Notes: generated by a model from the letters alone, not told the origin. Positions 20,057-64,000 are shown, numbered from the stretch's first letter. The stretch is DNA of 64,000 bases from a virus (IMGVR_UViG_3300020148_000032); one strand, 5' to 3'. Numbers and translations: made by a program.

Positions 20057-20833
20057 ATGCCTAAATACCACATCTCTATAAATGGAGAGCCTGCAGTTTG
20101 TAGAGCTTTTAAGCGACCTTGCCCAGTAGGTGGAGAACATTTTGATACGATGAAAGATGCTAGAGGTTGGCTGGAATCAAAACTTGAGGCACTTACGATC
20201 ACGTCATTATCAAAGAATCTTGATTCTTATCCATTAGTGATGAAGAATGGAGAGCTTGTGAGAACCGGACTTGTCATGTCTAGTAATTTTATTAAAGAGG
20301 TTGCAGAGAAAAGCGATAAGAATGAGAAGTGGTCTGGAACTTGGGAAGAACTAGAAAACCTTGTCATGAAGAATATGGATAATTGGTCTCCAGGTACTGG
20401 TAGTGTGGATGGGGATGTTCGTTTAGTTCATGTTCCTTCTGAAGGTTTTTATACTAATATTGTAGAAATAAATGATGAGAACAAGCATCTTGTTGAAACT
20501 GTTTGGGAAGCTCGAGTTGAGAAGGAAGATCCGGTACCGATTAGAGTGATCATGGGGGATGAATATGCTCCTGCTCATCATGTGGATGTAGTTCTTTATA
20601 GAGCTGATGTTCTTGCTAAGGATGATGATAGATCAAGTATTGCTGAGTGGGAAATTGTGAGTGTTAATTCTAAACCTGAAGAATTTGTACCTATGCACCC
20701 TAATACTATGAAAAGGAATGCTTCTAATTCTGTAGGTGGAACGTTAAGGGAATACTCTAAAGAACAGTGGGAAGAGTCCGAAAAGTATTGGGATTCTCAT
20801 GTATATGTTCGTCTTAAGAAGCAAGAATTTTAA
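20057..20833 (+). CDS. HCCH-module protein #1 with DUF3228-like C-terminal domain
   Basis: N-term YHISINGEPAVCRA..CPVGGEH; WEARVEKEDPV, VDVVLY, WEIVSV, PMHPNTMKRNA..GG, YW motifs. Confidence 0.8.
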   Translation: MPKYHISINGEPAVCRAFKRPCPVGGEHFDTMKDARGWLESKLEALTITSLSKNLDSYPLVMKNGELVRTGLVMSSNFIKEVAEKSDKNEKWSGTWEELENLVMKNMDNWSPGTGSVDGDVRLVHVPSEGFYTNIVEINDENKHLVETVWEARVEKEDPVPIRVIMGDEYAPAHHVDVVLYRADVLAKDDDRSSIAEWEIVSVNSKPEEFVPMHPNTMKRNASNSVGGTLREYSKEQWEESEKYWDSHVYVRLKKQEF

Positions 20834-20836
20834 AGT

Positions 20837-21628
20837 TTAAGAGGTTGACCTGAGATTTTCAGAATATTTTTGGTAAATTTCTTTACCTATTTTGAAGGAT
20901 TCTGAGGATGCTTTCTCCATAGTTTTCATGATTTTTTGAGCCCATGGGTGATCAGGTTCGGCTTGCAAGAACTTTAAGACTTCCATTCCTACGAGAGGTT
21001 GGAAGTAAACTGCATATATCGCATCTTCGTCCCAATGATAAAGGTTCCCATTAACTGCAGCATCAGGGTGGTCAGAATTTTTCTTGAATTGTAAAGAAAT
21101 ACAACTTTTGAGAAACAAATATTCGCGGCGGACCTTTTTGAAAGGGTTTTTCTCCTCATTTTCTCTTTTAGAGTTACCGAAAGTTTTTCGTGAGTGAGAA
21201 TATAGTGATATACCCTTCTTAGTCTTTTTAGCGAAAGAGTAATGTTTTCTTTCTTTATAGCGAATGTGTTCTAGATCCTCTATAATCGGATCATATGGTA
21301 GAGGTTCGTGATTAGAGCCAAATTTACATGCATTAAATTCAGCATCGTCAAGTATATTTTGCTGTTTCTTAGTGTAAGAATTAAGGTATTTTTGGTTAAA
21401 GTGTTCTGGAAGATAAGTTTCTTCTTTAAGTAGCTTTTTAGAAACTTTGTCCCCTGCTTCTATGTGCTCTTTTAAGTGGACGACTAAGTCAGTAGCATTG
21501 AAGAATGGTTGATCTTTAAACTTGTGTAGTTTGCATCCATCGCATTTAATATAACCACGGTAGTCAGAAATAATGGTAAGGGCTTCGTCTTTGTTAGTGT
21601 AGCGGTGTTGATTTTTTAACCAATCCAT
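20837..21628 (-). CDS. hypothetical protein with N-terminal C2H2-like motif
   Basis: CDGC...HLKEH; AAGGGAG RBS. Confidence 0.65.
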   Translation of the reverse strand: MDWLKNQHRYTNKDEALTIISDYRGYIKCDGCKLHKFKDQPFFNATDLVVHLKEHIEAGDKVSKKLLKEETYLPEHFNQKYLNSYTKKQQNILDDAEFNACKFGSNHEPLPYDPIIEDLEHIRYKERKHYSFAKKTKKGISLYSHSRKTFGNSKRENEEKNPFKKVRREYLFLKSCISLQFKKNSDHPDAAVNGNLYHWDEDAIYAVYFQPLVGMEVLKFLQAEPDHPWAQKIMKTMEKASSESFKIGKEIYQKYSENLRSTS

Positions 21629-21734
21629 TATGGAACTCCCTTACTTGCTATTCATACTTTCATTTTTTCACTATTATTTTATCAAGTTTTTAACGTCATA
21701 CATTGGTATAATAGTAATAAATGCGGAGGTTAAT

Positions 21735-22232
21735 ATGAATGTTTTTCTTGTTGGAAATTCACAAAAAGACCTCGAGTGGGCTAAATCCTTTATTAAAGAA
21801 CACGATGGAGTTCTTATTGAACGGGATAAAGTTTACTCTAATTTGTTTAAATCTGAACCAACAAGTGGGGATATTATACAGAATGAATTAATTTTTGACG
21901 AGATTCTTTATTCTATCTTTGATCTCATGCAAATTAAAGTGGAAACAATTGTTGTTTCTATTTCGCATTTATCTGATGCTTTCTATACTTTTCTTATCAT
22001 GATGAGACAAGCTCTTGATGATTTCCCTATTAATTCTCTTGTTAAAATCCTTTCTGATGGAGAATCTAAGGACGACTTTACTGACCTTGGTGATGATCTT
22101 GTTAAGGTGTATGGATTGCAAATGGGTTATGGAGAAGTCATCGGAGACGTTCCAATTGAAATGAATTTATTTCTTCAAAGTATAGTTATTGATTTTTATC
22201 CCACGTCTTTAAAAGATGTAAAGTTTTCATAG
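21735..22232 (+). CDS. hypothetical protein, possibly a degenerate P-loop kinase fold
   Basis: GGAGG RBS before ATG 21735; TGGTATAAT upstream. Confidence 0.55.
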   Translation: MNVFLVGNSQKDLEWAKSFIKEHDGVLIERDKVYSNLFKSEPTSGDIIQNELIFDEILYSIFDLMQIKVETIVVSISHLSDAFYTFLIMMRQALDDFPINSLVKILSDGESKDDFTDLGDDLVKVYGLQMGYGEVIGDVPIEMNLFLQSIVIDFYPTSLKDVKFS

Positions 22233-22249
22233 AAAGAAAGTAGTGAATA

Positions 22250-25087: not shown

Positions 25088-25302
25088 ATGGCTAGAAAAT
25101 TCACATTAATAATGAATCTTATTTAGATCATGTCAAATCAGTTCGATCTAAAGCTATAGAAGATGTAGGTCCCACAAGAATTATTAAAAAATTTGTTGAA
25201 GATTTTAAAGAAAACGGAGAGTAAAAGCCTCTTACTAAGACTCAATCGAGATATGTGCCTGAACGGAAATTGCCTGTTAGACTGCAGTCTCTTGTTAGTT
25301 AG
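25088..25302 (+). pseudogene. relic HCCH-module gene
   Basis: TAGATAA at 25049, AAGGA RBS, ATG GCT AGA AAA TTC then a frameshift into H-I-N-N-E; cysteines missing; in-frame TAA at 25222. Confidence 0.5.
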
Positions 25303-25805
25303 AAGTTCTTTTTGTATGTTTTCATCTGATGAATGTCAATAATAACAACAGGTAACCCCTTTTTAAGAATTTTCTGTACTGCGCTGTATGTTCCTCCGAA
25401 GGTTTTTTCAGAATCCCACACGGCTACAGCTAGATCAGAATCTTTAATCATTGCGTCATTTCTTGCGTGCAAATTTCTTACAGAAAAATGATCTGCTACT
25501 ACTATTTCTCTACTAGCAAGAGAACGTATTCTCTTCCACTCGTCTACATTTTCTTGAGGCCACTTATTAATTTGCGCTTCAAAAGGTATATATGCTGCAA
25601 TAGGAACACCCAACTCTAAATTAATTTGAGCCCACCACGTATCAACTCCTAAAGCCATTCCAGTAATCGCTTCTTGCATACCATAATCATTTTTTAATTT
25701 AGAAGCAATTCTTCGCATTTCTTCAAGAGCGAAAGACTTAGTTTTTGAAGTAAAAACATTAGGTCTGTGACCTGTTACCATTACTGAGTGTAGTTTATTA
25801 TTCAT
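25299..25805 (-). CDS. SLOG family protein (YspA/DUF1273-like)
   Basis: VMVTGHRP, GMALGVDTW, RNDAMIKDSD.AVAVWD, GGT. Confidence 0.85.
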   Translation of the reverse strand: MNNKLHSVMVTGHRPNVFTSKTKSFALEEMRRIASKLKNDYGMQEAITGMALGVDTWWAQINLELGVPIAAYIPFEAQINKWPQENVDEWKRIRSLASREIVVADHFSVRNLHARNDAMIKDSDLAVAVWDSEKTFGGTYSAVQKILKKGLPVVIIDIHQMKTYKKNF

Positions 25806-25861
25806 AAGTAACATTTTATCAAGAGTAGTTAGATAAATAGTTATGAACATAGGAGAACAAT

Positions 25862-26173
25862 ATGCCAAAATTTCATATTAATAATAGCGGGAACGTAGGT
25901 ATCTGTGAAGCACTACAAGGCAATTGCCCTTTTGGCGGCCCAGAAGATCATTATGATTCTATAGTTTCAGCAGCCCGTGCTTTTGAAAAAGAGATGGAAA
26001 ACCAAGCCTTCTCTCAAATGTCAAATACACAAAAGAATGATCTCTATTCCATTGCTATGGACGGGGATGAGGCTTATCACACGGGGCAATCCGTCCACAG
26101 CAATCCCCACCCTGAGGGCTCTCCGGAGTACGAGGTTTGGCTAGACGCTTTCAATAACCCCTCGGATCGTTAA
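25862..26173 (+). CDS. HCCH-module protein #2
   Basis: KFHINNSGNVGICEA...CPFGG...HY; 3' part is GC-richer. Confidence 0.8.
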   Translation: MPKFHINNSGNVGICEALQGNCPFGGPEDHYDSIVSAARAFEKEMENQAFSQMSNTQKNDLYSIAMDGDEAYHTGQSVHSNPHPEGSPEYEVWLDAFNNPSDR

Positions 26174-29026: not shown

Positions 29027-29079
29027 TAAAAAGCTCCTTAAACGTATTCATATTATACTAATCTTTCTATATAAAACTC

Positions 29080-29157: not shown

Positions 29158-30510
29158 TCAAGGAATTGGAGTCAATTTATATTTTTGTCCAGTAATTGCT
29201 CTAGCAAGTTTAGCAATCGCTTCTTTGAATGCTCCGTGTTGAAGTAACATATCCATTGATTGAGTGTTAGCAGCCAGCGCGGCGAGCTTTGGCTGTGAAG
29301 GAACAACAGTAATAATAGGTAATCCACTTACAGCTTGTTTAATCTTATCATCAGAATTTACACCTGCAAGAGATTTGTTCACTACAATACCTATTTTATT
29401 TCGACTAATTCCCATTCCTTGCTTCTCACGAGGCCCAGTTGTTTCCCTAATCCATCGAGTCATAGAGAAGATAGAGTTGATTACAATGTCAGTAACGAAG
29501 ACTATCTGATCTGCCATTGGGTAAGCGACCTTTTCAAGTAATGGGTCGAGATAATTAACGGAAGTGTCAAGAATGATATAATCATATCTTGATTTTAAGT
29601 TTTGCAATAGCTCTACGAAAAATTCAGGTGGAAGATCATTAGCATGACGACCAAATTTAGGAGCTAAAAGTAAATCAATCCCTAACCTATTATTCTTAAT
29701 AATAGTATCATCAATACTTTGCTCACTCATATTTCCCTTATGAATGTTAAGCATCGTTGGAGAATAATTATTAGTAATAAAACCTAACTGTCCATCACGC
29801 ACGTCAAGATCAACTAAAAGAATTTTTAATTTTTCTTTTTCCCTTTTCATCTTTACAGACTCGACAGAAGAAACAGCCATATAGTTAGCAAGAGTAATAG
29901 CAACAGTTGATTTACCAGATCCACCTTTACTAGATGTAACAACAACTATTTGACCAAGGGTACCACTATTATTTACATTTTCTTTAGAAACGTTAAATTC
30001 GGACTGTCTTTCTTCTTCGTCCTCTTTTCTCTTCTTATTGAAATCCTCGGTTGAAGTGTTTCCAGAAATAATATCTGCAGTCTCTGTATTATCAGTTGTT
30101 CTCAAATAAAGAGATATTGCCTCATCTAAATCTTTCTTTGCCTGAGTTTTTGAAATAAAGTAATATTGAATTTGACCGCTATTGCTTGTAGCGTATGCTT
30201 CAGCTTCGATTCTTTCACGAATCATGTCATTGTTTTCCGGGGTGTAATTAATAATACCTAGAAAACAATATGGAGCCATTGAATTAATAAGATTTTCGAA
30301 CTCTTTATTTTCTCCGTTAGGATCAAAGAAAGCATCATGAACAAGAAGTATTTGAACTTCACTATCTATAGTTCCGTCTCCAAGACCAGACCAAAGTTGA
30401 GCGATACTAGGAATTGAACCTTTAAAATCCCACGATGGATTCATTGCTGCAATTGCTTTTCCAATCTTCTCATTCCCAACGAATAATGCTGATGGATTTT
30501 TTTTCGTCAT
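29158..30510 (-). CDS. CpaE/TadZ-like MinD/ParA ATPase
   Basis: SKGGSGKST, LVDLD, YDYIILDT; Tad context. Confidence 0.8.
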   Translation of the reverse strand: MTKKNPSALFVGNEKIGKAIAAMNPSWDFKGSIPSIAQLWSGLGDGTIDSEVQILLVHDAFFDPNGENKEFENLINSMAPYCFLGIINYTPENNDMIRERIEAEAYATSNSGQIQYYFISKTQAKKDLDEAISLYLRTTDNTETADIISGNTSTEDFNKKRKEDEEERQSEFNVSKENVNNSGTLGQIVVVTSSKGGSGKSTVAITLANYMAVSSVESVKMKREKEKLKILLVDLDVRDGQLGFITNNYSPTMLNIHKGNMSEQSIDDTIIKNNRLGIDLLLAPKFGRHANDLPPEFFVELLQNLKSRYDYIILDTSVNYLDPLLEKVAYPMADQIVFVTDIVINSIFSMTRWIRETTGPREKQGMGISRNKIGIVVNKSLAGVNSDDKIKQAVSGLPIITVVPSQPKLAALAANTQSMDMLLQHGAFKEAIAKLARAITGQKYKLTPIP

Positions 30511-30561
30511 ATTAGGGCCTCGTCTTTCAAAAATATAATATATCTTTGGTGGTAGTTAAAA

Positions 30562-31602
30562 CTAGGGTTGTGGAGTTGGAGTAACGCTTGACTCCACAGT
30601 TGGTTCAACTGTAGCTTCAGTAGTTGGCTTGATTGTAGCCTCAACTGTTGGTTTAGTTGTTGGTGTAGTATCAATATCAGTATCAGTGTCTTTTGAAGGG
30701 TTGGTACCTTCACACTCAGTAGTGGCACTCCAGTTGAAGTGATTATTACCGGCTTTATCAATACATCCGTAAAGACCATTAATTGGACGACCATATTTGT
30801 CACGCTCAATGTCTTGGAAAGTGTAATTAGTAATTTCACCTGAATTAGATTCACCAGGCCATATCACACCATTCTCATAAATATTGTAACTAAATAGACC
30901 AGCGTATGAAGCTAATTGAGGTTTATTGTACTCGTTTTGTCTTGGAGAGAGAACAAGTTTAATGCTATTTCCATAACGAGAAACAATATCTTGAAGTAGT
31001 GCTGCATTTTCTGGAGACATACCTACGACATATTGTGAAGTTTGACCAGATTTAGCTTCAGAAGTATCGGCAGCGTTATTTGATGATGCATTATTAAGAT
31101 CAACAGAAGTATCAAGAACTAATACGTTAACAAAAGGGTAGAAAGAACCTTCAGTAGTCGTGACAAGCATATCGAAGTAATAACCACGTTTAATACGTCC
31201 TCCAACAGCATCATCAGCATCTACAGAGAAATTAGTAATAACCCAATTATCTGGCACTCCGACAGATATATCATCAAGGGCTCCAACGTTACTAGATGTA
31301 AGAATGTCGCCAGCTACAAGAGGATACTTAGAATAATAAGCTCCTGATTGAATTTCAGCAATTCCAAAAGATGTAGGAGGCTCAGTTCCGTCAGACGTTA
31401 CTATTGCTGTTAACATGTCTGGAGTAATAAGAGTTCTTGTTGCAACATCTTGATTAATAACATAATAAGTGCTAGTCTGATAAATACTCTGTAAGAAAGT
31501 AAGTGTCCCCACAAACACAAGAACAACTAAAACAGCAATTCCACCAAAAATGAGTTTATTGTTGGTTAAAGAATTCAAGCCTCTACTATTTTTTGCAGCC
31601 AT
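30562..31602 (-). CDS. CpaB/RcpC-like SAF-domain pilus protein with P/T-rich tail
   Basis: N-terminal TM, SAF pattern (LITPDML...PLVAGDILT), AVGGRIKRG.YFD. Confidence 0.75.
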   Translation of the reverse strand: MAAKNSRGLNSLTNNKLIFGGIAVLVVLVFVGTLTFLQSIYQTSTYYVINQDVATRTLITPDMLTAIVTSDGTEPPTSFGIAEIQSGAYYSKYPLVAGDILTSSNVGALDDISVGVPDNWVITNFSVDADDAVGGRIKRGYYFDMLVTTTEGSFYPFVNVLVLDTSVDLNNASSNNAADTSEAKSGQTSQYVVGMSPENAALLQDIVSRYGNSIKLVLSPRQNEYNKPQLASYAGLFSYNIYENGVIWPGESNSGEITNYTFQDIERDKYGRPINGLYGCIDKAGNNHFNWSATTECEGTNPSKDTDTDIDTTPTTKPTVEATIKPTTEATVEPTVESSVTPTPQP

Positions 31603-31655
31603 AGAAAGCGCACCTTTCTCCTTTTGTTTTTATAACAAAAATAATATCACTAAAG

Positions 31656-32813
31656 TTAAGAAACTTTTGTAAGCGGATTACTATTAAAGGCCTGAGCCCA
31701 ATCTTTCTTCCAATTACTTATTTGTACTGTAGAGCATCTACCCAAAAAGTCTTGCATGAGACATTCCCCTTTTCGAAGACTTGGAAGGGTATCTTCAAAT
31801 CCTTCATTTTCTGGAAGACCCATATCATCAACGATCCTTAATGCCTCATCACTATCAGTTCTGAACGCAAACCTTGTAGAAATAGTGTTCTTAATGTCTA
31901 ATCCGTCAAAATGACTAACATTTTGTGATAAAAGCATTAATCCAATATTTTTAGAACGACCAAGAAGAGCAACAGATTGAACAACTCCAGCTCCATATTT
32001 ATTCATAAGAATATTCCAAGCCTCATCAATAATGAGCATTTTGGGTTGTTTAGAGTCCATATTTTCCATCACTTTACGAATAAAGTCTGTTAGAAGGAAA
32101 AGAATACCCGATACTAATCTTCCTGAATTACTCTTGGCTTCTTCCTCAGTTTTTGGTAACGGCATTCCCGGTAAAGTAACAATAGTGACACCTGTTTTGA
32201 AATTAATTAAGCCTCGGCTAGAATTACCTGGAGCGAAGCATAGTTTTGAATATTTCATATTCTGAATAAGATCTAACTTAGTACCAAGATCTCTTGCTTC
32301 CTGACGTTGACTGCCTCTTAATTCAAGAACAACTTTTTGTAATGAAGGGTTTGGCAAATCAATAATATCTTTAAGAATTGGCGCTAATACAGTCATCTGT
32401 GTATCACTAAGACCCCCTACGAAAAGGTCAATGACACTTACAGAAAGATTTAGCTTATCCTCGGGGGTATCTCCTAGGTTAAAAGGGTCAAGTATTCCTG
32501 CTCGACCACCGTTAGAGTCAGTTAAATTCCATAGGTTACATGAACCTAATTCTTTCTGAAGATTAGTAAGAGGAATAAAGTCACCTTTTGGATCAAGAAC
32601 TACTGTAGTCTTACCTAAAACCCATGAGAGAGTAGTGACTGTTAATCCGAAGAATGTTTTACCACTACCTGGAGCTCCAGTAACAATAGAACATGGAGGT
32701 CTATTATTATACATTGGAGTGTTTGCGTCCCAAAATACTGGCATTTTTACGCCTCTTGTAGTTTCTCCAATGAACATACTAGATCCATATATGAAATCAT
32801 TATCAATAGGCAT
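31656..32813 (-). CDS. short VirB4-like (TcpF/ConE-type) ATPase
   Basis: GAPGSGKT, VLDPKGD, LDPF, IIDEAW, GRS, LSQ; TAATG-coupled to the upstream gene. Confidence 0.8.
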   Translation of the reverse strand: MPIDNDFIYGSSMFIGETTRGVKMPVFWDANTPMYNNRPPCSIVTGAPGSGKTFFGLTVTTLSWVLGKTTVVLDPKGDFIPLTNLQKELGSCNLWNLTDSNGGRAGILDPFNLGDTPEDKLNLSVSVIDLFVGGLSDTQMTVLAPILKDIIDLPNPSLQKVVLELRGSQRQEARDLGTKLDLIQNMKYSKLCFAPGNSSRGLINFKTGVTIVTLPGMPLPKTEEEAKSNSGRLVSGILFLLTDFIRKVMENMDSKQPKMLIIDEAWNILMNKYGAGVVQSVALLGRSKNIGLMLLSQNVSHFDGLDIKNTISTRFAFRTDSDEALRIVDDMGLPENEGFEDTLPSLRKGECLMQDFLGRCSTVQISNWKKDWAQAFNSNPLTKVS

Positions 32814-33247
32814 TATTGACCGCCGTCCATTTGAGCAAGCTCTTGTAATTCTCTTCTTCTTGAGATCCAAATTTCAGATTCAACAAAATATTCATCGTCA
32901 AATGAATTAGTTGCATAAAGATCATTCCAACCTTTTGGTTCTCGCATGTAATTTATAGACACTTTAGTGAAATCTAACAAACTTCTTCCAGCAAAAAGAG
33001 GTTTAGATCCGTAATACCCAAGGGCTATAGGTGGAGCTAGAGCAAAAGAAGCAAAAAAGATATTAAGGTGAATCCCGAAAATTAATACTATTGGGAGAGT
33101 CCATATAATAAGAAATACAGTAGTATAACCGACTTTTTTCAAAGAAACTGGTTTCTTGAATTTTATGTCTCCCAAAGAATACATGAAGAGCTCTCTATTA
33201 AAGAAGTTCGTCATGTTAATTGTAGTAAGATGATAATTATTAGACAT
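32813..33247 (-). CDS. TcpE/VirB3-like conjugation membrane protein
   Basis: NFFNRE..MYSLGDIKFKKPVSL followed by two TMs, directly upstream of the VirB4-like gene. Confidence 0.6.
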   Translation of the reverse strand: MSNNYHLTTINMTNFFNRELFMYSLGDIKFKKPVSLKKVGYTTVFLIIWTLPIVLIFGIHLNIFFASFALAPPIALGYYGSKPLFAGRSLLDFTKVSINYMREPKGWNDLYATNSFDDEYFVESEIWISRRRELQELAQMDGGQ

Positions 33248-33252
33248 TAAAG

Positions 33253-33870
33253 TTATTCCTCAGTCATTAATTCTGGATTAATAATATATTGGTTAATATC
33301 ATTTTCAGTCACTTCTTCAAAGTTTAGGATTATTTTAAATTTATCTTTCGAACCAGAAAGTCCACCATATCTAAAAGACATTTCAAGAAGATTTGTATAT
33401 TGATCATCTTCCCACCAACTTGAATCAGTAAATCCATCAATAAGATGCTTAATAGTTGGATAAAGATTTGGGGGATCAAACCTTCTTTTTGACGGCGGAC
33501 ATACTGTTACAACTACTTTAAATTTTTCAAACAAGAATGGGCATTTTATTTCAGAACTCTTAACTTCATGATGAAGAAGATCAATTTTGTCTAGTTCCTC
33601 TTTTATCGCTTCTTCACTTTCACCCTTTTTATTCATTCTTTTTCTCGTGCGGGCTTTAGCTGTTGCAATTTCAGCCTCATGATTAATAGCATTAAGCCTT
33701 TCTTGAGCTTTTATTGGGTCAATGTGTTCTAAAACACCAATGTCAGCAGCCATATTTCTAAGATTAGATGCAATTTTAGATTTCACTATATAATGATTAG
33801 GCATTGCATTAGAATTAAGTAGCTCTCCTCGCGAAAGCTCGAAAACTACTTCTTTTTTTAATAAAGACAT
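33253..33870 (-). CDS. RusA-like Holliday junction resolvase
   Basis: RRFDPPNLYPTIKHLIDG...WEDD (D-x2-N...K...D...DD). Confidence 0.7.
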   Translation of the reverse strand: MSLLKKEVVFELSRGELLNSNAMPNHYIVKSKIASNLRNMAADIGVLEHIDPIKAQERLNAINHEAEIATAKARTRKRMNKKGESEEAIKEELDKIDLLHHEVKSSEIKCPFLFEKFKVVVTVCPPSKRRFDPPNLYPTIKHLIDGFTDSSWWEDDQYTNLLEMSFRYGGLSGSKDKFKIILNFEEVTENDINQYIINPELMTEE

Positions 33871-33884
33871 ATATTTCCTTTATC

Positions 33885-34835
33885 TTATAGATTTTTAATA
33901 TTATTAATAAGTCGTCTTGTAAAGTAAATACCAAAAACGTAAAGTACTGCTACAACAATAAGAACTATCCAAGAAATTGGATTAACAAACCAGAAAGCGC
34001 GAGCACCAGAATCAAAGAGGTATGTTACTAGGAATGAACCTGGAATTACGAAAGTAGAAACAAGAATAGAAGGCATAGTCGCATTAGACGCTCTACTTAT
34101 CTCGTTACTAATTTTTTGACGGTCATTAAGAACATTCTGAATAGTAGCAATCTGATGTTCAATATTAGTTCCACTGTTAGAGGCTTGAATCATACATGCA
34201 GCCAAAAATTTTAAATCATTAGAGGAGGTTTTAGCGGATAATTCATCAAGAGCTTCTTTGAAAGTTGCATTAGCAAGCAATCTGTTCTTTACAATAATAA
34301 GATCATCGTAAAGAGGGCTTGGCATACTATCAACAACTTTAATGAGAGCCCTTTCAGGAGTTTCATTTGCCTGAATGTTAGCTTTTAGAGCAAAAAGAAA
34401 ACCTGGAAGTTGATTGTTAATAGCGTCAGATTTTTTATTAATAAGAATGTTAATTCCAATAGAAAGCAACCATAAACTAATTCCAGCAACAGCAATTCCT
34501 ACAAGAGGGTTCATGAAAAGTGTGGAGAAAAGAACAGCCAATGCAAGACTGATTACAATAATATCTCTACCACCAGTATTGTCAGAATCAGAATAGCGAG
34601 CAAGTCCTGTTTCTTTCAGAATTTTACCCCAGTGAGTACTCCATCTGTAGTAAAGAGTATTCTTTAACTGCTCTGTTTCAAATTCGTCTTCAAAGATTGC
34701 TTGTAATTGATCTTCGTAAGTTTTATTAGACCCATTCTTTTTAAAGATTAAATATCCAAGAGCTATAATAAGGCCGATAACAACAGCAATACCAGCAGCC
34801 ATTAAATAAATAAAGTAAGGGCTATTTAGAGGCAT
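33885..34835 (-). CDS. tadB: TadB-like platform protein (T2SSF)
   Basis: QLP.FL..L...QA, TM pattern, adjacent to CpaF. Confidence 0.8.
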   Translation of the reverse strand: MPLNSPYFIYLMAAGIAVVIGLIIALGYLIFKKNGSNKTYEDQLQAIFEDEFETEQLKNTLYYRWSTHWGKILKETGLARYSDSDNTGGRDIIVISLALAVLFSTLFMNPLVGIAVAGISLWLLSIGINILINKKSDAINNQLPGFLFALKANIQANETPERALIKVVDSMPSPLYDDLIIVKNRLLANATFKEALDELSAKTSSNDLKFLAACMIQASNSGTNIEHQIATIQNVLNDRQKISNEISRASNATMPSILVSTFVIPGSFLVTYLFDSGARAFWFVNPISWIVLIVVAVLYVFGIYFTRRLINNIKNL

Positions 34836-34836
34836 C

Positions 34837-36693
34837 TTATTCTCCGTATTCTATTTTACTCAATTCGACTAGCTCTTCCCAATTGAGGTCCTTTTCAATA
34901 TCAAGGTGGCGTCTCTGTCGGCGAGTCTCGCTCATACTTCCAACTTTAACCCAATCCCCAAATATTCTACCATCTTGAGTTAAACCTTTGTTATTAAATT
35001 TCCAAAGAGGTTTAGTTTTTAATGTTAATTGTCCGTCTTTCCCACGAGTTGCAACAGTATCGATTTCAGAAATTGAAGAAATTCTACGCGAACCATCAAC
35101 AGGATAGTGTTCTAGATAGATAACAAAATCAAATGCGGCAGCAATAAGAGGATAAATAGATTCTCCGTGAGCAAGACCACTTTGAGCCACAAGGGAAGCA
35201 ATACGATAAATACCGTCAGCTTCATCATTAGCGTGAAGAGTAGAAGCTCCAAAATGACCAGTGTTTAAAGCTTGGCACAAATCATATGCTGCTCCATCAG
35301 TAACCTCACCAATAATAATTCCGTCAGGCCTTAATTGTAGAGAGGCTTTAACAAGATCTCTCATTGTAACACCCTCTCCTTCACGATCTGCTCGTGATGG
35401 AATACATTCCATAGCAGCAGCTAGGAACTTATTAGGGTTCGGCTTCATTTCGAGGTTATCTTCGAGAGTAAGAATTCTTACAGAATCTCTATAGAACCCA
35501 GTAAGGGCATTTAACATAGAGGTTTTACCTGTAGAAGTACCCCCTAGAACTAGGAAAGAACATCCTTTATAAATAAGGTTTCCAATTTCAGTCATCATTG
35601 GAATACTTGCTGAACCTTTAGAAATAATACCTTCTGGAGTCCAATATCCTGCTGGATGACGTCGGATAGAGAAGTTAGGTCCTTCTGGAGCTACACTATT
35701 ATGTACTGCAAACATTCTACTCTTATCATGCAGTCTACCTTTAACAAGAGGGGTAGTTCGAGAAACGTTTTTCCCTATAGAAGCGTAAAGTTTTTCAATA
35801 AGACCCATCATGTGATCTACATCTCTGAATTTACATGATGGGACTTTGTAAAGCTGCCCAGCTATTTCTACTTGAACATCAAAAGGTCCATTACAAATAA
35901 TTTCATCAATCCTTCGGTCTCTCCATAAAGGATCAAGTCGTCCCATACCTAGAAGCTCATTAATCACCATTATTGATACAAGTTGACGTTCAATTCCTTT
36001 ATAAGGAAGTTTATCAAGTTCTGTTAAAAGAATTGAATTAATAGTACGGTATGCGTTATCCTGAAGGGCGTCATTAGTTGGGTCATTTTGAGCATTACCA
36101 ATAATAGAGGATTGTCCGTTATTAGTGACTTGATTTTGAACTGAAACCAGAGTTTTTCTTATATGATCTTCATATTTATCGAAATATCCATAAGGCGCGC
36201 TAAGGAGAATCTCTGCAGTAAGGAATCGCGCTCTTTTAATACCACCAGCAGGATACTTATCCATTAATGATTGAGATGACTTTTCAAGAGCTCTTAATAT
36301 TTCATCACCAGAAACATGATATTGCGAATTATTGTAACGGTCTTTTGATTCTTGAGTTGCAACATATGTTGATAATTCTTCATCCTCAAAAGCATCAATA
36401 AAAGGATTATTTGTTGGATTAATAGGCAATCCACTTCCAGCATTAGGTTTTTGAGGTTGGACTGTAACCTCTTTTTCTTCTATGTTATTAGTTTTGTCTA
36501 CAGGTGTAGAAACTTGAGGAACAACAAAGTCTTGCATAATAGCTGGTTTTTGATCGAAGCTTTGTAATGGTTCAATATTAGTATTATTTTGACTCTCAGC
36601 ATTAACTGGCTGGAAGACACCAGGGGTGGAATTATTAATAACGGCTTGATTATCAACCTTTGGTTCTTCGTCTTCAAAAGGACTAAAACTCAT
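34837..36693 (-). CDS. cpaF: CpaF/TadA pilus assembly ATPase
   Basis: G.LDPL..D..IDEIICNG, GGTSTGKT, TLEDNLE, LRPD.IIIGEV, LNTGH..STLHAN. Confidence 0.92.
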   Translation of the reverse strand: MSFSPFEDEEPKVDNQAVINNSTPGVFQPVNAESQNNTNIEPLQSFDQKPAIMQDFVVPQVSTPVDKTNNIEEKEVTVQPQKPNAGSGLPINPTNNPFIDAFEDEELSTYVATQESKDRYNNSQYHVSGDEILRALEKSSQSLMDKYPAGGIKRARFLTAEILLSAPYGYFDKYEDHIRKTLVSVQNQVTNNGQSSIIGNAQNDPTNDALQDNAYRTINSILLTELDKLPYKGIERQLVSIMVINELLGMGRLDPLWRDRRIDEIICNGPFDVQVEIAGQLYKVPSCKFRDVDHMMGLIEKLYASIGKNVSRTTPLVKGRLHDKSRMFAVHNSVAPEGPNFSIRRHPAGYWTPEGIISKGSASIPMMTEIGNLIYKGCSFLVLGGTSTGKTSMLNALTGFYRDSVRILTLEDNLEMKPNPNKFLAAAMECIPSRADREGEGVTMRDLVKASLQLRPDGIIIGEVTDGAAYDLCQALNTGHFGASTLHANDEADGIYRIASLVAQSGLAHGESIYPLIAAAFDFVIYLEHYPVDGSRRISSISEIDTVATRGKDGQLTLKTKPLWKFNNKGLTQDGRIFGDWVKVGSMSETRRQRRHLDIEKDLNWEELVELSKIEYGE

Positions 36694-36696
36694 TTT

Positions 36697-37599
36697 TTAC
36701 GCTCCAAACGATGAAATAAGAGAGTATACAGCAGGGGTACCAACAACAAGCACAAGCGCTGGCAAAAGAGTAGGAATAAGAACAATCACCATTTTATGTT
36801 CTAGAGAGGCGGTTTTTGATCTAATAACAGCAAAGAAGTCTTGTCTAGAAGCGTCAGCTCTTGATTGGAGAATTTCAATCATAGGGACATTCAACTCATT
36901 TGCTTCTTGAACAGCTCTAATAAAAGTAGTAATATTTTCGTTAGGAGCTCTATTCGCAAAATCGTTAAGAGCCTCTGACATACCTTTACCAGCATCTAAA
37001 GATCTACTAATATCTCTGAATTCCTCTTTAAGGACTCCAGGTTTCATATTAGGGATGGACTCTCTTAAAGCTTGATTGAATGTATTGCCTCCCGAAAGAG
37101 AAATAATAAGTAAATCAAGAGCATCAGGTAATGACCTTTTGAATTCTAAATCTCTTTCTTTTGCATAAGAGGAATACTTTATTCTAGGTATAAAGAAACC
37201 AAAAATTACTCCAAAAGGAATAAAGATAAACCAAGGAATTGTAATAACTGTTGCAAGAACAAACCAAAGAACGACTGATATGATAGCGCCTAAGAAACCT
37301 GTAATATATTGGAAGAATACAAATTCATTTGGAGTTAGTTTCCATGGATTTCCTGATTTAGTAAGCAATGATTGAACTCTATTATAACCAGGTCTAGAAT
37401 TCCTGTCAAGCATGCTAGCAGGAAGTGTAGAATGCAATTCTCCACCAACATATGTCACAAGCTTTAAAAGCTTGTTTTTACTTTGTTCTTCTTTATTATT
37501 TGGCGCGAAACTTTCTGTAGATCGCGGAACAAAAATAGCATATGTAAATAATCCTGCTATAAGAGAAAGAAGAACAGAAATGACTATAGGATTATCCAT
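36697..37599 (-). CDS. tadC: TadC-like platform protein
   Basis: LPDALDLLIISL.GG.TF.QAL, L.EEF, TM pattern. Confidence 0.85.
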   Translation of the reverse strand: MDNPIVISVLLSLIAGLFTYAIFVPRSTESFAPNNKEEQSKNKLLKLVTYVGGELHSTLPASMLDRNSRPGYNRVQSLLTKSGNPWKLTPNEFVFFQYITGFLGAIISVVLWFVLATVITIPWFIFIPFGVIFGFFIPRIKYSSYAKERDLEFKRSLPDALDLLIISLSGGNTFNQALRESIPNMKPGVLKEEFRDISRSLDAGKGMSEALNDFANRAPNENITTFIRAVQEANELNVPMIEILQSRADASRQDFFAVIRSKTASLEHKMVIVLIPTLLPALVLVVGTPAVYSLISSFGA

Positions 37600-41995: not shown

Positions 41996-42036
41996 GAGAA
42001 ATCCTCGATTAATTTTATTTATTTTCTAACTCATTA

Positions 42037-45492: not shown

Positions 45493-45618
45493 TACTTACT
45501 TACCATCCTTGCGTTAAAAATAGAGTACATCACTACTATTTTATCAAAATCGAACGTAGAATTAATATATCAACTTTAAAGGAGTTAGAAAATATTCTAA
45601 CAACAAAGGTAGGTTCTT

Positions 45619-46527: not shown

Positions 46528-46543
46528 CACGCCTCCTCTAAAA

Positions 46544-46587
46544 AGTAAGGCACCGCGGGTTACCCTCCTTTACCGCGGTGTCTTACT
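46544..46587. terminator. terminator-like hairpin
   Basis: agtaaggcaccgcgg...ccgcggtgtcttact between convergent genes. Confidence 0.7.
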
Positions 46588-46642
46588 AGAAAGAGCTAAT
46601 TAGTTGGCTGTCGAGTAATAGTAATAAAAAAGCTATCATTTA

Positions 46643-47335
46643 TCAAAGCTTTCTACAAGTACTACAATACAATCGCACCTTGGCTCTCTTATTAGACTCA
46701 GACACACAATACTCTCTATCACAACGAGAACACGTTAGCTCTACTCCACCAAAAGACAATGAATAACACTTACGAGAGCAATACTTACCCCTGCCATCCC
46801 TTACCCTGCTAGGGTTAGTAGAGAACAACTCAGAACATTGTAAACATTCTCTCAAAAAAGTCGTCCGCATAGAATCATACAAACAATCAAGTGAGCAATA
46901 CTTCGCATTCCAACGCTCAGAGCGAGTGAAAGTCACCCGGAAGGAAGTACCACACATTTCACAAAAAATATCTACCGCCGGAAGCAAACTTCTAGGTGAC
47001 TCTAACTCTTCCATTACTAAAGACCGCAAACGCTTAATTAATATTTCAGTCACTTCCTGTGCTTGCCTTACCTCATTACACAACAAATGCGCAGGTTTAA
47101 TATTTTCTATCGTGTCACTACCACCTAAAGATTTCGGAATAACATGATCTTCGCTGAAAGAAAGAACATTCTGAACACGAGAACCATCAGGATAAAACAC
47201 ATAAGAATCAAGAGTAGTGTCAATAGAGTAACCACAAATCCAACACAACTCCGACTTTGCCCAATAAAGACCCTTCACATAAGCGGACTTTCGAAACTTT
47301 TCTAGATTACTCACAGGTAAGAACTCCACAATCAA
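46643..47335 (-). CDS. HNH endonuclease with C-terminal zinc-ribbon repeats
   Basis: CWICG...EDHVIPKSLGG.D...NIKPAH..CN; repeated CxxC...KYCSxxC. Confidence 0.85.
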   Translation of the reverse strand: MIVEFLPVSNLEKFRKSAYVKGLYWAKSELCWICGYSIDTTLDSYVFYPDGSRVQNVLSFSEDHVIPKSLGGSDTIENIKPAHLLCNEVRQAQEVTEILIKRLRSLVMEELESPRSLLPAVDIFCEMCGTSFRVTFTRSERWNAKYCSLDCLYDSMRTTFLRECLQCSELFSTNPSRVRDGRGKYCSRKCYSLSFGGVELTCSRCDREYCVSESNKRAKVRLYCSTCRKL

Positions 47336-47507
47336 ACACTTCTAAAGAGTTATATTTCTTGCAATAGTTAAAGTAATAAAAGGTCATTCTCCCTTTGTGC
47401 TTCTGTTTGAAATTTTTATGACAAGTAGAGCAAGAGCTCTCAAAAGAAACAGCACCGCAATACTTACAATTAGCGGTGCTGTTTCCACAAAGGGAGCAAA
47501 TATTCAC
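47307..47507 (-). CDS. small Cys-rich protein
   Basis: three CxxC pairs, directly downstream of the topoisomerase B gene. Confidence 0.4.
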   Translation of the reverse strand: MNICSLCGNSTANCKYCGAVSFESSCSTCHKNFKQKHKGRMTFYYFNYCKKYNSLEVFDCGVLTCE

Positions 47508-47513
47508 AAATAT

Positions 47514-50791: not shown

Positions 50792-50819
50792 AAGAATAGT
50801 TCTTTATCGTAATATAAGT

Positions 50820-50835
50820 TTTTCTATATAGAAAA
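50820..50835. promoter_or_regulatory. palindromic double TAGAAAA motif serving divergent HCCH genes
   Basis: TTTTCTATATAGAAAA, 35 and 33 nt from the starts at 50791 and 50862. Confidence 0.65.
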
Positions 50836-50861
50836 ATATATGATTAATTTTAGGAGATAAG

Positions 50862-51686
50862 ATGACTGTTAAGTATCATATTAGTGCTGATGGTAATGTT
50901 CGCCAGTGTCGCGCCAAAACTCCAGATTCGTGTAGAGCTACAAAAACAGGGTTCAATGATCATTTTGATGATAAAGATTCTGCACGAAAAGCTTATGAGG
51001 ACAAGCAACGTGAGCAAATGAATAAAATAATGTCTACATTTAATAAAATGGAAAAGAAAGAAACTGTTGCTTCTAACGCGAATGTTACAGCTGAGGTTCT
51101 TGCACATCAAGAAGTTTTGAAAAAAGCGGAATCCATTTTATCTAAAATTACCCCGCAAGATAAAGACGAACGCGGATATTATGAAAGCGATCTTTATTAT
51201 CCACTTTTCGTTAATTCGAAAAGGTGTATTGAGGGAACTCGAGAGATAAAAGATACTGTCAAATATGATCCAAAAGTGGTGTCAAGTTACACTAACTTTA
51301 TTGTTTCTTTAAACACATTTGAATTGATAAAATCTGGGTCTAAGATAGATTCAGACGTGAAAAAATCATTCCAAGACTTGTATAAGAAAGCTATTCTTGC
51401 TAGAGAGAAAATTGCGGGAGTTGAGGGTTTCCCTAAAGTAGACTTGGTTGAATTTGTAAAAAATGCTGCTTCTAATGACTCTAGAACTAAATTATTGAAC
51501 CTTAGAAATGAATCTATTTTAGCTCATGCAGCTTTTGATATTCACAGAGGAATTCCATTGGGGACCAGCATGAAACTAGACCCTGATTATTTGAACGAGT
51601 ACCCACGGGCACGCAAACTTTTAAGACAGAATGATAGACTCAATCAATTAAGGAAGAAATTAGGTCTGAAGGAAACAGGCTTTTAA
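50862..51686 (+). CDS. HCCH-module protein #8
   Basis: KYHISADGNVRQCRAKTPDSC...HF; shares FDIHRG.PLGT with #10. Confidence 0.8.
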   Translation: MTVKYHISADGNVRQCRAKTPDSCRATKTGFNDHFDDKDSARKAYEDKQREQMNKIMSTFNKMEKKETVASNANVTAEVLAHQEVLKKAESILSKITPQDKDERGYYESDLYYPLFVNSKRCIEGTREIKDTVKYDPKVVSSYTNFIVSLNTFELIKSGSKIDSDVKKSFQDLYKKAILAREKIAGVEGFPKVDLVEFVKNAASNDSRTKLLNLRNESILAHAAFDIHRGIPLGTSMKLDPDYLNEYPRARKLLRQNDRLNQLRKKLGLKETGF

Positions 51687-53173: not shown

Positions 53174-53318
53174 AAAGTTCTCCTTAAAGATATTGTCTTT
53201 TCTATATAAAAAAAACTTTAATGAACTTAAATTATTTTTTTAAAATACCCCTTATTCTTATTCCTTCTAATAAGTATTTAGAAAAGGATTCATCAAATGA
53301 ATTATAAGGAGTGAATTT

Positions 53319-56966: not shown

Positions 56967-57166
56967 TTTAACTCCTAAAATATTCGTATTTATATTTTAT
57001 ATGAAAGTTGAAAATAAGTCAAATGGTTCTCTCTTAGATAAGAATAAAGAAAATTTTAATTACTTAAATAATATTAAATTTTAATTGATAGTTTTTCTTT
57101 TATTTATATAACATAAAAACACAATCTCTATATTTAAACATTTAGAAAATATAAAGAGGAGGTATT

Positions 57167-57547: not shown

Positions 57548-57590
57548 ATCTTTTTAGAAAAGATTGTGTTATTTTTATTAGTGGAGAAGA

Positions 57591-58418: not shown

Positions 58419-58453
58419 TTAGAAAAGTTTATAACTATTTGTTGGAGAATATT

Positions 58454-59275
58454 GTGTCAAAATTTCATATTAATAGTAAAGGTGAACCTGGAATTTGCAA
58501 AGCAACAAGCGGTAGTTGTCCATTCGGTTCTGTCGAAGAACACTATTCTTCTAAGGAAGAAGCAACTCTTGCATATGAGAAAGCTCAAGAAGCAAACCTT
58601 GTCTCTACTTTGAAAAGAATTGCTGATTCAGATGATCCGGGGCCGCGTCGCATGGCGGCCAAGAACCATCGCACCCCAACAGAAGTACTGACACAGCTGG
58701 CATCGGACAGGGACATGTACGTGCGCCGGGCGGTGGCCGGGAACCCGAGTGCTCCAGCAGAGGTGCGGGTACAGTTGGAGTCGGATAAGGAGGCGACCGT
58801 GCGCACTGGCGTGGCCTACAACCCCAATACCCCCGCGGAGACGCTGGAAGCGCTGGCGTCGGACAGGTCCGCGGACGTGCGCCACTGGGTGGCCCGGAAC
58901 CCGATCACCCCAGTGGAGGTGTTGGTGGTGTTGTCGTCGGACGAGGACAGTGGCGTGCGCTGGTACGTGGCCCAGCACCCGAACGCCCCAGCGGAATCAA
59001 TGCCACTGCTGGCATCGGATGAGAACAGATGGGTGCGGCGGGCGGTGGCCGAGAACCCGAGGGCTCCCATCTCCGTTGTTGCGGAGCTCATGGGTGATAG
59101 CAGCCCTCTTATCGCATCTACTGCCCGCAATCGGTTCACCTTGTGGGCGCAGAAATCACTTGATCTTGGTTCTGTTCCCACTGGGCAACTCATTGACAGG
59201 TTGGTGGCGCTGAAGGCGTGGGAGTTGGACCCCAAGGACCCGGCTGTCACTGCTGCTGTTGTGTTGTGCAACTGA
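58454..59275 (+). CDS. HCCH-module protein #13 fused to GC-rich LRV/HEAT-like repeats
   Basis: GTG 58454 after GGAG RBS; about seven 24-aa repeats L.SD....VR..VA.NP..P. Confidence 0.85.
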   Translation: MSKFHINSKGEPGICKATSGSCPFGSVEEHYSSKEEATLAYEKAQEANLVSTLKRIADSDDPGPRRMAAKNHRTPTEVLTQLASDRDMYVRRAVAGNPSAPAEVRVQLESDKEATVRTGVAYNPNTPAETLEALASDRSADVRHWVARNPITPVEVLVVLSSDEDSGVRWYVAQHPNAPAESMPLLASDENRWVRRAVAENPRAPISVVAELMGDSSPLIASTARNRFTLWAQKSLDLGSVPTGQLIDRLVALKAWELDPKDPAVTAAVVLCN

Positions 59276-59507
59276 GCACCGAATACTGTGTGCCGGCATG
59301 GCCAGATGCACCGCCCCTAAGTTCGCCATCACTATTTACTTCGTTTGCTAATTGTATTATCTTTACTCAAGAATATCTTTCAAACCCAGAAAGTATTTAC
59401 CAATTTTAAAATGAGAAGGATTAACAAGCTCTTCTAATAGGGATATTATTTCATACCTTTCGTAAGAATGATTTAGAAAAGTTTGTAACTATTTATTGGA
59501 GAATATT

Positions 59508-61440: not shown

Positions 61441-61487
61441 TCGAACTCCTCTGATATAATCTTTTCTATAAAGCAAGAATATAAGGA

Positions 61488-62207: not shown

Positions 62208-62245
62208 GGAGACCCCTTATTTTATCTTGTTATTATTTTAACAAT

Positions 62246-62731
62246 TTATTCAACAGGGTATTTCTCATAACCTTTGGTTTGATTTTCAATAATTCGAGGG
62301 TTAGAATTCAAAGTAGTAAGTTCAACAGTAAGATCAGAATTAAATTTTGAGTCACTTGTCACTTTAAAATCATAGATTCTGTAATCATCAGTGCATATCT
62401 CGCCATACACTGTAAAATTAAGAGATAATGTATTATCAGAATATATTGCGTTAGTGAGAATTGGCGGACATGAACCAGACCCACCACTTCTTACATAAAC
62501 AGTTTTTAAATCCTCACTAAGTATAAAATATTCACCCCAATGAACTTCTCCTCCATTAAGTTCATCAAGTCTTGAAATGTAAGAGTCTTGTTCATATTGT
62601 GCAGTAAGATTACCTTGCTCTAAAGTGTCAGTTAATTTCATTGGTCTGTCTGTTGCTACTTTTACAACACAGAAACCAAGTATAACAAAACTCATGATGA
62701 GAATTGAAGCAATAGTGTATTTGTATTTCAT
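62246..62731 (-). CDS. exported/membrane-anchored protein with a probable disulfide
   Basis: signal/TM, GSGSCPP...ICTDD. Confidence 0.65.
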   Translation of the reverse strand: MKYKYTIASILIMSFVILGFCVVKVATDRPMKLTDTLEQGNLTAQYEQDSYISRLDELNGGEVHWGEYFILSEDLKTVYVRSGGSGSCPPILTNAIYSDNTLSLNFTVYGEICTDDYRIYDFKVTSDSKFNSDLTVELTTLNSNPRIIENQTKGYEKYPVE

Positions 62732-62791
62732 ACTCTTACTCCCCGAAAATCTTTATAAAAATATCGACTTGCGGGGAGTAAGTTGACTAAT

Positions 62792-63775
62792 TTAATCAGT
62801 AGTATCGTAAGTGATAGAGATAGTACCTTCGTCCGCATCATATTGATGGCGAATGAAGTTATATCTGTTGTAATATGTATAGAGGTTATTTACATCATCA
62901 AGTGTTAAACCGAATTCTGTAATTTTATCCTTATCAAGAGTAATCTTTGATTGTGAATAACCCCTAAATCTTCCTGATGGGTAAACTGTATTATTATTTT
63001 CTATAATTTCTTTTTGTAAATCTTCTAATGTGAGGTTTTTGCTGTCAGCGATATCTTTAGCCTTTAAAAGAGCGGCATCATAAGGAGAATTCTTCCTTAA
63101 ATCCTCCTTAGCAAAATCTGGTAGTTTTGGATTTAATACCATTTCTTTGTTTCTATAACCGGCTTCGTACATATCTCCAAGCATTTCAGGGGTAAGGTTC
63201 TCATTTTGATAAAGTCCAGAGTAAAGTTTATTTCTGACTTGTTCATCGTTTTCTTCGTTAATCTTTTTGAAAATGACAGGAAGATATTTTTCAGGAAATT
63301 TAGTAAGCTCATACCAATCTCGACCATCAAGTTTAATATTTAAATAAACAACATTTGGATCAATTTTCCCGGAAGCAATAACATCCCACTTGAACTCATC
63401 TTGTTGATATAAGAAGAAGTCTTGACGAACTGAATCACTAATTCTATTATTAGGATTTCTTAAAGCGCCTTTCATTTGAGTTCTACTAAGGAGATTCTTA
63501 TCTTTAATATGTTCGTCACCAATATAATTTTGACCATCGATAGTTCTGAAGGTACCTCTGAACATATAGTCAGTTTTTAGTTTCACTCTTAACTCATCAG
63601 GAGTGTACTCTATTTCTCTATTAGCAAACCCACCGTCTTGATTAAGTCTCTCGTAATGTTCACGGGCTGCTTCTTTCGTATCAAAATGGTCAGCAGCTCC
63701 ACCAAAAGGGCAAGGTCGTGTTCGCGCTCGGCAAGCGCCCGGCTCGCCGTTATTATTAACGTGGTATCTTGGCAT
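62792..63775 (-). CDS. HCCH-module protein #16
   Basis: RYHVNNNGEPGACRARTRPCPFGG...HFDTKEAAREHYE. Confidence 0.8.
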   Translation of the reverse strand: MPRYHVNNNGEPGACRARTRPCPFGGAADHFDTKEAAREHYERLNQDGGFANREIEYTPDELRVKLKTDYMFRGTFRTIDGQNYIGDEHIKDKNLLSRTQMKGALRNPNNRISDSVRQDFFLYQQDEFKWDVIASGKIDPNVVYLNIKLDGRDWYELTKFPEKYLPVIFKKINEENDEQVRNKLYSGLYQNENLTPEMLGDMYEAGYRNKEMVLNPKLPDFAKEDLRKNSPYDAALLKAKDIADSKNLTLEDLQKEIIENNNTVYPSGRFRGYSQSKITLDKDKITEFGLTLDDVNNLYTYYNRYNFIRHQYDADEGTISITYDTTD

Positions 63776-63868
63776 TATTACTCCAATATAAAAGTGGGTA
63801 TATATACTTATCTATACAAAATAAAATATTTTTTTGTTAGAAAATTTAATAACTTTAGGAGATCATAT

Positions 63869-64000
63869 ATGTACCACATTAATTCTGACGGAAATGTTCG
63901 TCAATGCAGAGCAACATCTAAACCATGTCCTTTTGGGGGGAATGATGGAAATCAGAATCATTATTCCACTAAAGAAGAAGCATTGAAAGCGTTCGAAAAA
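63869..64000 (+). CDS. HCCH-module protein #17 (5' part, truncated by window end; not in ORF track)
   Basis: AGGAG RBS; MYHINSDGNVRQCRATSKPCPFGGNDGNQNHYSTKEEALKAFEK. Confidence 0.85.
   Translation, partial: MYHINSDGNVRQCRATSKPCPFGGNDGNQNHYSTKEEALKAFEK

Follow-up and report, generated by a model that had tools for sequence, protein, structure and literature searches.

In the 64,000-nt stretch of contig IMGVR_UViG_3300020148_000032 analysed here (the window; whole contig 436,884 bp, GC about 0.36), 17 of approximately 69 open reading frames (ORF), about a quarter, began with the same His-Cys-Cys-His (HCCH) module, a domain absent from curated libraries, and continued into mostly unrelated C-terminal parts (cargoes). 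Genes carrying the module are called tagged, and are designated by the position of their start codon (Table 1). With high confidence, the module is a real folded domain family and the tagged genes form a regulon. The tag probably acts as a common handle recognised by one partner, and delivery is tentatively proposed as the specific purpose of that partner.

The original prediction had described 17 genes sharing an N-terminal H-C-C-H module, and all 17 starts translated to M-x-K-[YF]-H-[IVL]-[NST]...G...C-x-A...C-[PR]...H-[FY]...A. A hidden Markov model (HMM) built from the MAFFT alignment of the 17 N-termini (alignment A1), run with filters off on every stop-to-stop segment in six frames, found exactly those 17 sites in the window (61.5-83.2 bits; next best 5 bits), and did not match within positions 1-20000. 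All matches coincided with the start codon (profile position 1-2), and no protein had more than one module copy (17 of 17), a pattern far beyond chance. In alignment A1 (n = 17), Met1, His5, Gly10, Cys15, His28 and Ala35 were invariant; in 50862 and 53319, where the residues read ..SC-R-A-T.., the second Cys was put in the wrong column by MAFFT, and His, Cys, Cys and His were present in all 17 modules. The invariance predicted for these four residues extended to 147 aligned homologues from elements spanning 31-57% GC, in which H5, C15, A17, C22, H30 and A37 did not vary, M1, N7, G10, P23, F24, G25 and E42 were at least 90% conserved (the polar Asn7 and Glu42 being nearly invariant), and the ligand spacing H-x9-10-C-x5-6-C-x6-9-H was constant.

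A profile search of 1.84 billion representative proteins returned 5,274 clusters at E ≤ 1e-3 and 1,734 at E ≤ 1e-10. The strict N-terminal position that a search of public proteins had been expected to show was upheld, the match starting at residue 1-2 in about 145 of the best 150 clusters; three offset cases resembled mis-called starts, and six clusters had a second stretch. An extreme N-terminal position in a single copy had been predicted as a rule without exception, which held within the window, but rare tandem doubles occurred elsewhere. Protein P0001 (positions 10001-10828 of L001, an 828-kb contig of 56% GC) is a true tandem double with a degenerate second module (33 bits), and duplication can thus place the module internally. 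Members in the best 150 clusters were 65-466 aa long, a few of them consisting of the module only.

The module (residues 1-48) was unmatched in Pfam-A with all 17 window proteins, in NCBIfam 20 and PHROGs v4 with 10 of them, and by Pfam or PADLOC 2 profiles in 150 relatives; precomputed Pfam columns were empty for the tagged genes in related loci. There were no profile matches to the module among PDB sequences at E ≤ 10 and no tblastn match in GenBank phages with the module or with a tagged protein, and no description of the module was found in the literature. As anticipated, the module could not be placed in a named family. BFVD contained 11 members, all from a single GenBank record ('Siphoviridae sp. 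ctHip2'), from which the Atlas 'Viruses' labels probably derive, and fold searches of BFVD and Atlas returned solely members of the module family. The domain, the link between it and a conserved promoter element, the scale on which it occurs and the elements hosting it all appear to be undescribed; the arrangement of a conserved N-terminal module with variable cargo is already known in kind. Even if its function is modest, the family merits a database entry, which would annotate thousands of 'hypothetical' proteins.

By its predicted structure, the module is an autonomous mini-domain of approximately 45 residues comprising a beta-hairpin, a Cys-Pro-Phe-Gly loop and a helix. AlphaFold2 modelled the module alone (147-row alignment; predicted local distance difference test, pLDDT, 81) with strands at residues 4-6 and 12-14 and a helix at 34-47, and residues 1-150 of the NAD-dependent DNA ligase LigA, tag included (20 tagged orthologues), with strands at 4-6 and 13-15 and a helix at 35-45. 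The tagged LigA consists of the module (1-48), a linker (about 49-57) and a complete ligase. Residues 49-52 of its model fell below pLDDT 50 and the domain Ia helices started from residue 58, which indicates that the module is a separate bead on a linker. The His-Cys-Cys-His set most likely holds one metal ion, probably zinc. Four invariant Cys/His ligands at fixed spacing in a small fold would suit a zinc finger in the broad sense, and the prediction that the spacing suits zinc binding agreed with the invariant spacing in a predicted fold. The best Foldseek match was to Kunitz inhibitors (E 1.4) and the best VIA-align match had Z 3.2, both weak matches to a Kunitz-like topology; the likeness lies in a hairpin plus helix, cross-linked differently from the module. 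No solved structure convincingly resembled the module in the PDB profile search, Foldseek or VIA-align, and the fold is regarded as unassigned, also with respect to the classical beta-beta-alpha, treble-clef and zinc-ribbon groups of zinc fingers.

A promoter-like motif, TTAGA(A/G)A (TTAGARA; window form TAGA(A/T)A(A/G)), was located 24-43 nt upstream of 16 of the 17 tagged starts and of 1 of the 52 untagged ORFs in the window (Fisher p = 1.5e-13). The sole tagged exception was 26254, 80 nt behind 25862, with which it is probably co-transcribed. On L001, TTAGA(A/G)A preceded 7 of 10 tagged genes by 33-46 nt and 0 of 19 untagged genes (p = 8e-5). On L009 (53% GC), three motif hits foretold the genes at 3460, 4884 and 7286 before the HMM was applied, and all three were tagged. 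On L004 (46% GC), two tagged genes had the motif 14 nt ahead of their ATG (6223-6240 and 9987-10003; TTAGAAAC) without a Shine-Dalgarno sequence, which implies leaderless mRNAs for them; the spacing would fit the -10 element of a leaderless transcript. No -35-like partner of the motif was evident. Hairpins directly 5' of some motifs in L001 indicate that the tagged genes are single transcription units.

Divergent tagged pairs had back-to-back motifs at 50815-50845 and 63805-63850 of the window. The motifs at 50826 and 50829, belonging to 50791 and 50862, overlapped in a near-perfect palindrome (TTTTCTATATAGAAAA), which suggests a bidirectional promoter. Judged from these upstream regions, the tagged genes can be taken as one regulon with a shared TTAGA(A/G)A promoter element. 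Mean nucleotide identity among modules was 59% versus a background of about 50%, which indicates that the modules are old. In the pair 58454/59508, identity was 80% upstream (60 nt), 63% in the module and at background in the cargo, a pattern that marks the joining of a 5' cassette to new cargo.

The cargoes had been listed as an NAD ligase, a DUF3228-like domain, LRV repeats and many orphans, in agreement with the family searches, in which the remaining 14 of 17 matched no family (all 17 against Pfam; 10 against NCBIfam and PHROGs). Two paralogue pairs had been claimed. All-against-all BLASTP of the parts after residue 48 clearly confirmed 50862/53319 (E 8e-10), but 50791/53173 only marginally (E 0.005), and all remaining pairs were unrelated. 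The cargo of 53173 had a sub-threshold helical-repeat lead only (TM < 0.5 to HEAT/LRV clusters in Atlas structural rows), and for 53319 a word-indexed search of 5.8 billion clusters yielded no sequence other than itself. Among the 150 relatives, the only Pfam cargoes were Rnl1, a zeta-toxin/AAA_33 kinase and a GNAT acetyltransferase; an RNase_T/DnaQ-type exonuclease was tagged in L009. A membrane-like segment was present in none of the 17 window proteins and in the cargo of 1 of the 150 relatives. LigA orthologues sharing 53-59% identity, whose contigs measure 573, 670, 683 and 828 kb, retained the tag; more distant ligases of approximately 690 aa, on contigs of 211-727 kb, were untagged.

The best explanation as a whole, put forward with caution, combines a metal-binding handle, a promoter-plus-tag cassette and a delivery-type partner. 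The TTAGA(A/G)A promoter element, the ribosome-binding site and the tag would be inherited as a 5' unit, and tagged single-gene units would be scattered through the backbone of a giant-element clade. A flexible linker would join the module to unrelated, soluble, mostly fast-evolving cargo. The one partner would be a delivery route, either the hybrid Tad-like/VirB4-like apparatus of the element or a particle, by which tagged proteins accompany the element DNA into a new cell; orphan effectors, RNA-repair enzymes, ligase and exonuclease would act there at an early stage. In its most specific form, that a large accessory set is zinc-tagged, possibly under an element-specific promoter class, and loaded into the Tad/VirB4-like apparatus or a particle to be transferred together with the DNA, the proposal is doubtful.

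Delivery is favoured because of the likeness to effector sets with a shared promoter and an N-terminal address, the cargo types, and the Tad/VirB4-like genes close by. These, together with TcpE, adjoin the tagged LigA in an operon (29158..37599) encoding a CpaE/ParA-like protein, a 346-aa protein without assignment, a VirB4-like AAA_10 ATPase, TcpE, a TadC-like protein, a CpaF-like ATPase and a TadB-like protein. The original prediction of an address tag received partial support: it fits the dedicated promoter, effector-like cargo elsewhere (zeta-type kinase, GNAT, Rnl1) and these neighbours. Set against its destination, a transfer channel or a virion, are tag-less sisters that share the backbone and a window that gave no capsid, portal or tail match, and the conserved tagging of LigA and of a DnaQ-type exonuclease suits docking inside the cell just as well.

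Several points weigh against delivery. No capsid, portal or tail match was obtained among 49 untagged ORFs of the window. In L012 (697 kb), the ligase was untagged and no module was present in its 22 kb, and L013 (727 kb), syntenic with the tag-bearing L004, had no tagged gene in its 22 kb; the Tad/VirB4 backbone thus occurs without the tag, and the machine does not need it. Some modules stand alone in proteins of 65-79 aa. The signals known for type IV secretion lie at the C-terminus, and a metal domain with a stable fold makes an awkward leader for a narrow channel. LigA and the DnaQ-type exonuclease look like in-cell replication enzymes, the tag being kept on LigA at the identities given above, and 5' cassette inheritance alone could explain the strict N-terminal position.

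Type III effectors have hrp-box promoters and N-terminal signals reassorted among proteins (terminal reassortment). They are similar to the tagged proteins in combining unrelated cargoes with a common N-terminal region and a dedicated promoter element, and in apparently gaining members by joining a 5' part to new C-termini (here 58454/59508). In type III systems the signal is a disordered peptide; the module has a predicted fold and probably binds metal, its promoter motif is TTAGARA, and no type III genes were present. The T4 capsid-targeting sequence and phiKZ-type head proteins likewise have an N-terminal address on unrelated proteins, but the T4 sequence is a short peptide and not a 45-residue His/Cys domain. 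Type IV secretion substrates differ in having a C-terminal or internal signal to which a coupling protein responds, the element conserved here being at the extreme N-terminus. The PE/PPE and LXG proteins of type VII systems resemble the family in their large expansions, conserved N-terminal domain, variable C-termini and large coding share; their domains, however, consist of helices, span 100-200 residues and are metal-free, and there was no Pfam match to PE/PPE or LXG and no type VII gene seen in the window.

Enzymatic effectors travelling with invading DNA (MuF toxins, polyvalent proteins, ArdC-N) have been proposed, with an N-terminal 'header' domain coupling cargo to the conjugation apparatus (PMC5512222). 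The concept of delivery with invading DNA is the same and some cargo types overlap. MuF and polyvalent proteins are giant fusions, whereas the tagged genes are separate and small (65-466 aa), with a single cargo and their own tag and promoter; no Pfam match to MuF, ArdC-N or another recognised header was obtained with the 17 window proteins and the 150 relatives. If delivery is correct, this would be a first among conjugative and phage-like elements: a folded delivery domain at the N-terminus that serves so many substrates.

Delivery is only slightly favoured over docking inside the cell, itself rather unlikely, in which the tag would bind an element-made hub (a replisome or clamp-like protein, a partition or condensate scaffold, or a compartment) and concentrate ligase, exonuclease, RNA-repair and accessory proteins where element DNA and RNA are handled, as in dockerin-cohesin or PIP-box/PCNA recruitment. 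Dockerins are likewise small metal-binding modules with a linker on dozens of unrelated enzymes per genome and a common partner, but they bind calcium, are usually C-terminal and are extracellular, and the cargoes here were without signal peptides or membrane segments. The long conservation of the tag on LigA, the tagged exonuclease of L009 and the predicted folded domain on a flexible linker are all consistent with docking, and confinement of the tag to a subclade sharing the backbone would be expected if a subclade-specific hub arose. However, most cargoes are orphans without a nucleic-acid link, a candidate hub is lacking, and the strict N-terminal position would need to be explained by cassette descent. 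If the tag is a handle for either delivery or docking, it would be a bait for the machine or hub that recognises it and a portable tag for moving or co-localising proteins, and the TTAGARA plus HCCH rule would list the whole effector set of the elements.

A regulatory switch or degradation tag is improbable. The His/Cys set would sense zinc or oxidation, or a protease or chaperone would recognise the domain, so that the whole regulon is stabilised or removed together; invariant redox-sensitive ligands, co-regulated genes and the near-invariance of Asn7 and Glu42 fit such a role. The terminal A-[YF]-E of the module resembles the S/A/G-x-E cleavage sites of phiKZ-type prohead proteases, but it lies within a confidently predicted helix and may be purely structural, and there was no protease or sensor candidate.

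A nucleic-acid-binding or nick-sensing zinc finger tethering cargo to DNA or RNA is slightly more improbable still, although the H/C/C/H ligand set suits a zinc finger and the LigA, RNase_T and Rnl1 cargoes act on nucleic acids; eukaryotic DNA ligase III, with its N-terminal zinc finger, is a comparable case. Mean net charge of residues 1-45 was -0.65 (150 members), which argues against a generic nucleic-acid-binding finger and disfavours the earlier suggestion that the module docks cargo on the element DNA. The consensus was without an evident conserved basic patch, most cargoes were orphans, and no solved nucleic-acid-binding finger was matched, a weak negative.

Least probable is a large paralogue set without common function, in which the N-terminal fold, merely a folding or stability cap, and the promoter persist by descent: the modules are old and the cassette could spread by duplication and terminal reassortment, but six columns were invariant across the 147 sequences in elements of widely differing GC, the tag was long retained on LigA, and the cargo folds (LigA, DUF3228, LRV) are unrelated, so that the tag was joined to them repeatedly.

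Table 1. Positions and supporting evidence of the tagged genes of the window and of the neighbouring backbone operon
Feature	Coordinates	Strand	Module HMM (bits)	Upstream motif	Other evidence
DUF3228 cargo, 258 aa	20057..20833	+	66.3	TAGAAAA at 20027, 30 nt upstream	DUF3228 E 3.6e-17
Orphan cargo, 103 aa	25862..26173	+	82.2	TAGATAA at 25830, 32 nt upstream	
Orphan cargo, 143 aa	26254..26685	+	83.2	without own motif	80 nt after 25862, same ribosome-binding-site region
NAD-dependent DNA ligase LigA, 754 aa	26762..29026	-	73.8	TAGAAAG at 29069	LigA domains
Orphan cargo, 185 aa	41438..41995	-	61.5	at 42028, 33 nt upstream	
Basic orphan cargo, 302 aa	45619..46527	+	70.7	at 45586	between gyrA and HNH/gyrB genes
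Tagged gene, 133 aa	50390..50791	-	75.6	at 50826	palindromic divergent pair with 50829
Tagged gene, 274 aa, paralogue of 53319	50862..51686	+	66.1	at 50829	
Tagged gene, 428 aa	51887..53173	-	75.5	at 53204	
Basic cargo, 300 aa	53319..54221	+	65.8	at 53279	
Tagged gene, 126 aa	57167..57547	+	71.5	at 57143	
Acidic cargo, 275 aa	57591..58418	+	62.3	at 57555	
LRV/HEAT-repeat cargo, 273 aa, GTG start	58454..59275	+	75.6	at 58420	LRV E 6e-33
Tagged gene, 230 aa	59508..60200	+	79.2	at 59474	
Tagged gene, 227 aa	60757..61440	-	78.7	at 61468	
Tagged gene, 327 aa	62792..63775	-	79.5	at 63814	same protein on 5 contigs
Tagged gene cut by window end	63869..64000	+	67.7	at 63838	about 186-187 aa in overlapping contig L005
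Neighbouring backbone operon, candidate machine	29158..37599	-			Pfam

The carriers, metagenomic contigs of 0.4-0.8 Mb with a Tad-like/VirB4-like backbone in common, belong to one clade of giant mobile elements that are uncultured. The window encodes GyrA, GyrB, RadA, RarA, two secretion ATPases, TadB/C-like proteins, TcpE and a VirB4-like ATPase, and contained no rRNA or tRNA; GyrA and LigA were no more than about 30% identical to proteins of phage or plasmid records. In the window, no prohead protease was seen and no VirD4-type coupling protein was identified, only AAA_10 and TcpE being found. A Replic_Relax protein had also been mentioned, but the untagged ORFs of the window gave no match to it at E ≤ 1e-3. 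Gene order in L012 was TadB, CpaF, TadC, TcpE, VirB4-like, CpaE-like, ligase, second secretion ATPase and a protein of approximately 960 aa, the same as in the window, and tag-less sisters with this backbone indicate that the tag family is the mark of one subclade within a larger group of giant elements.

The common-form tag DNA pattern had 3 hits in 185,579 species genomes, all on short contigs of metagenome-assembled genomes (MAG), and three tag DNA patterns had 0 hits in the viral contig set; the pattern M-[AS]-K-[YF]-H-I-N...C.A...CP covers only part of the family, as do the patterns generally, and their absence is a weak result. One of the three hit contigs, L007 (3.5 kb), had four tagged genes. 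L007, from a 'Pararhizobium' MAG, and L006, from a 'Clostridiales' MAG, are short contigs rich in tagged genes from unrelated taxa, and are probably mis-binned giant-element fragments.

Inocles are giant extrachromosomal elements of oral Streptococcus, of 245-395 kb and 24-32% GC (PMC12340149), typified by VirB4/VirD4, gyrase, Pol III and sortase. The likeness, drawn by description only, is to the element and not to the module: both are giant, low in GC and apparently absent from isolate genomes, and both have VirB4, gyrase, Pol III, an exonuclease, a RecD-like helicase and an S26 peptidase. The present contig differs in size and composition (437 kb, about 36% GC), and the module is unmentioned in PMC12340149.

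The operon at 29158..37599 and positions 1-9865 of L012 mixed Tad-type parts (two T2SSF, a CpaF-like and a CpaE/ParA-like protein) with conjugation-type parts, which in the window operon were TcpE and a short, 404-aa VirB4-like AAA_10 ATPase. At 43048-49643 (minus strand), gyrA and gyrB were split by the tagged 45619 (plus strand) and an HNH endonuclease gene (46643-47335), both of which look like insertions into a backbone operon. Strand composition was extreme at 10000-19872 (GC skew -0.39 to +0.47), where a 1006-aa Asp/Ser/Glu/Val/Gly-rich low-complexity ORF without family (15388-18408) preceded a CpaF-like ATPase (18457-19872) whose N-terminus carries a long acidic extension; L012 kept a similar pair (961 aa plus a 593-aa T2SSE).

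Repeated DUF4379 zinc-ribbon proteins flanked the ligase in L013 (7307-13446) and L004 (17552-18724), with an IS605 OrfB/Cas12f-like TnpB gene beside them in L013. They were rejected as an analogous tag, their ribbons being internal and repeated, not N-terminal. Untagged genes of nucleotide- or RNA-repair type lay in the window at 675-1145 (similar to nucleoside 2-deoxyribosyltransferase), 10256-10804 (the HAD domain found in 'Swiss Army Knife' RNA-repair proteins) and 25299-25868 (a YspA SLOG protein), and the untagged ORFs also included matches to a RusA-like resolvase and to DUF4326.

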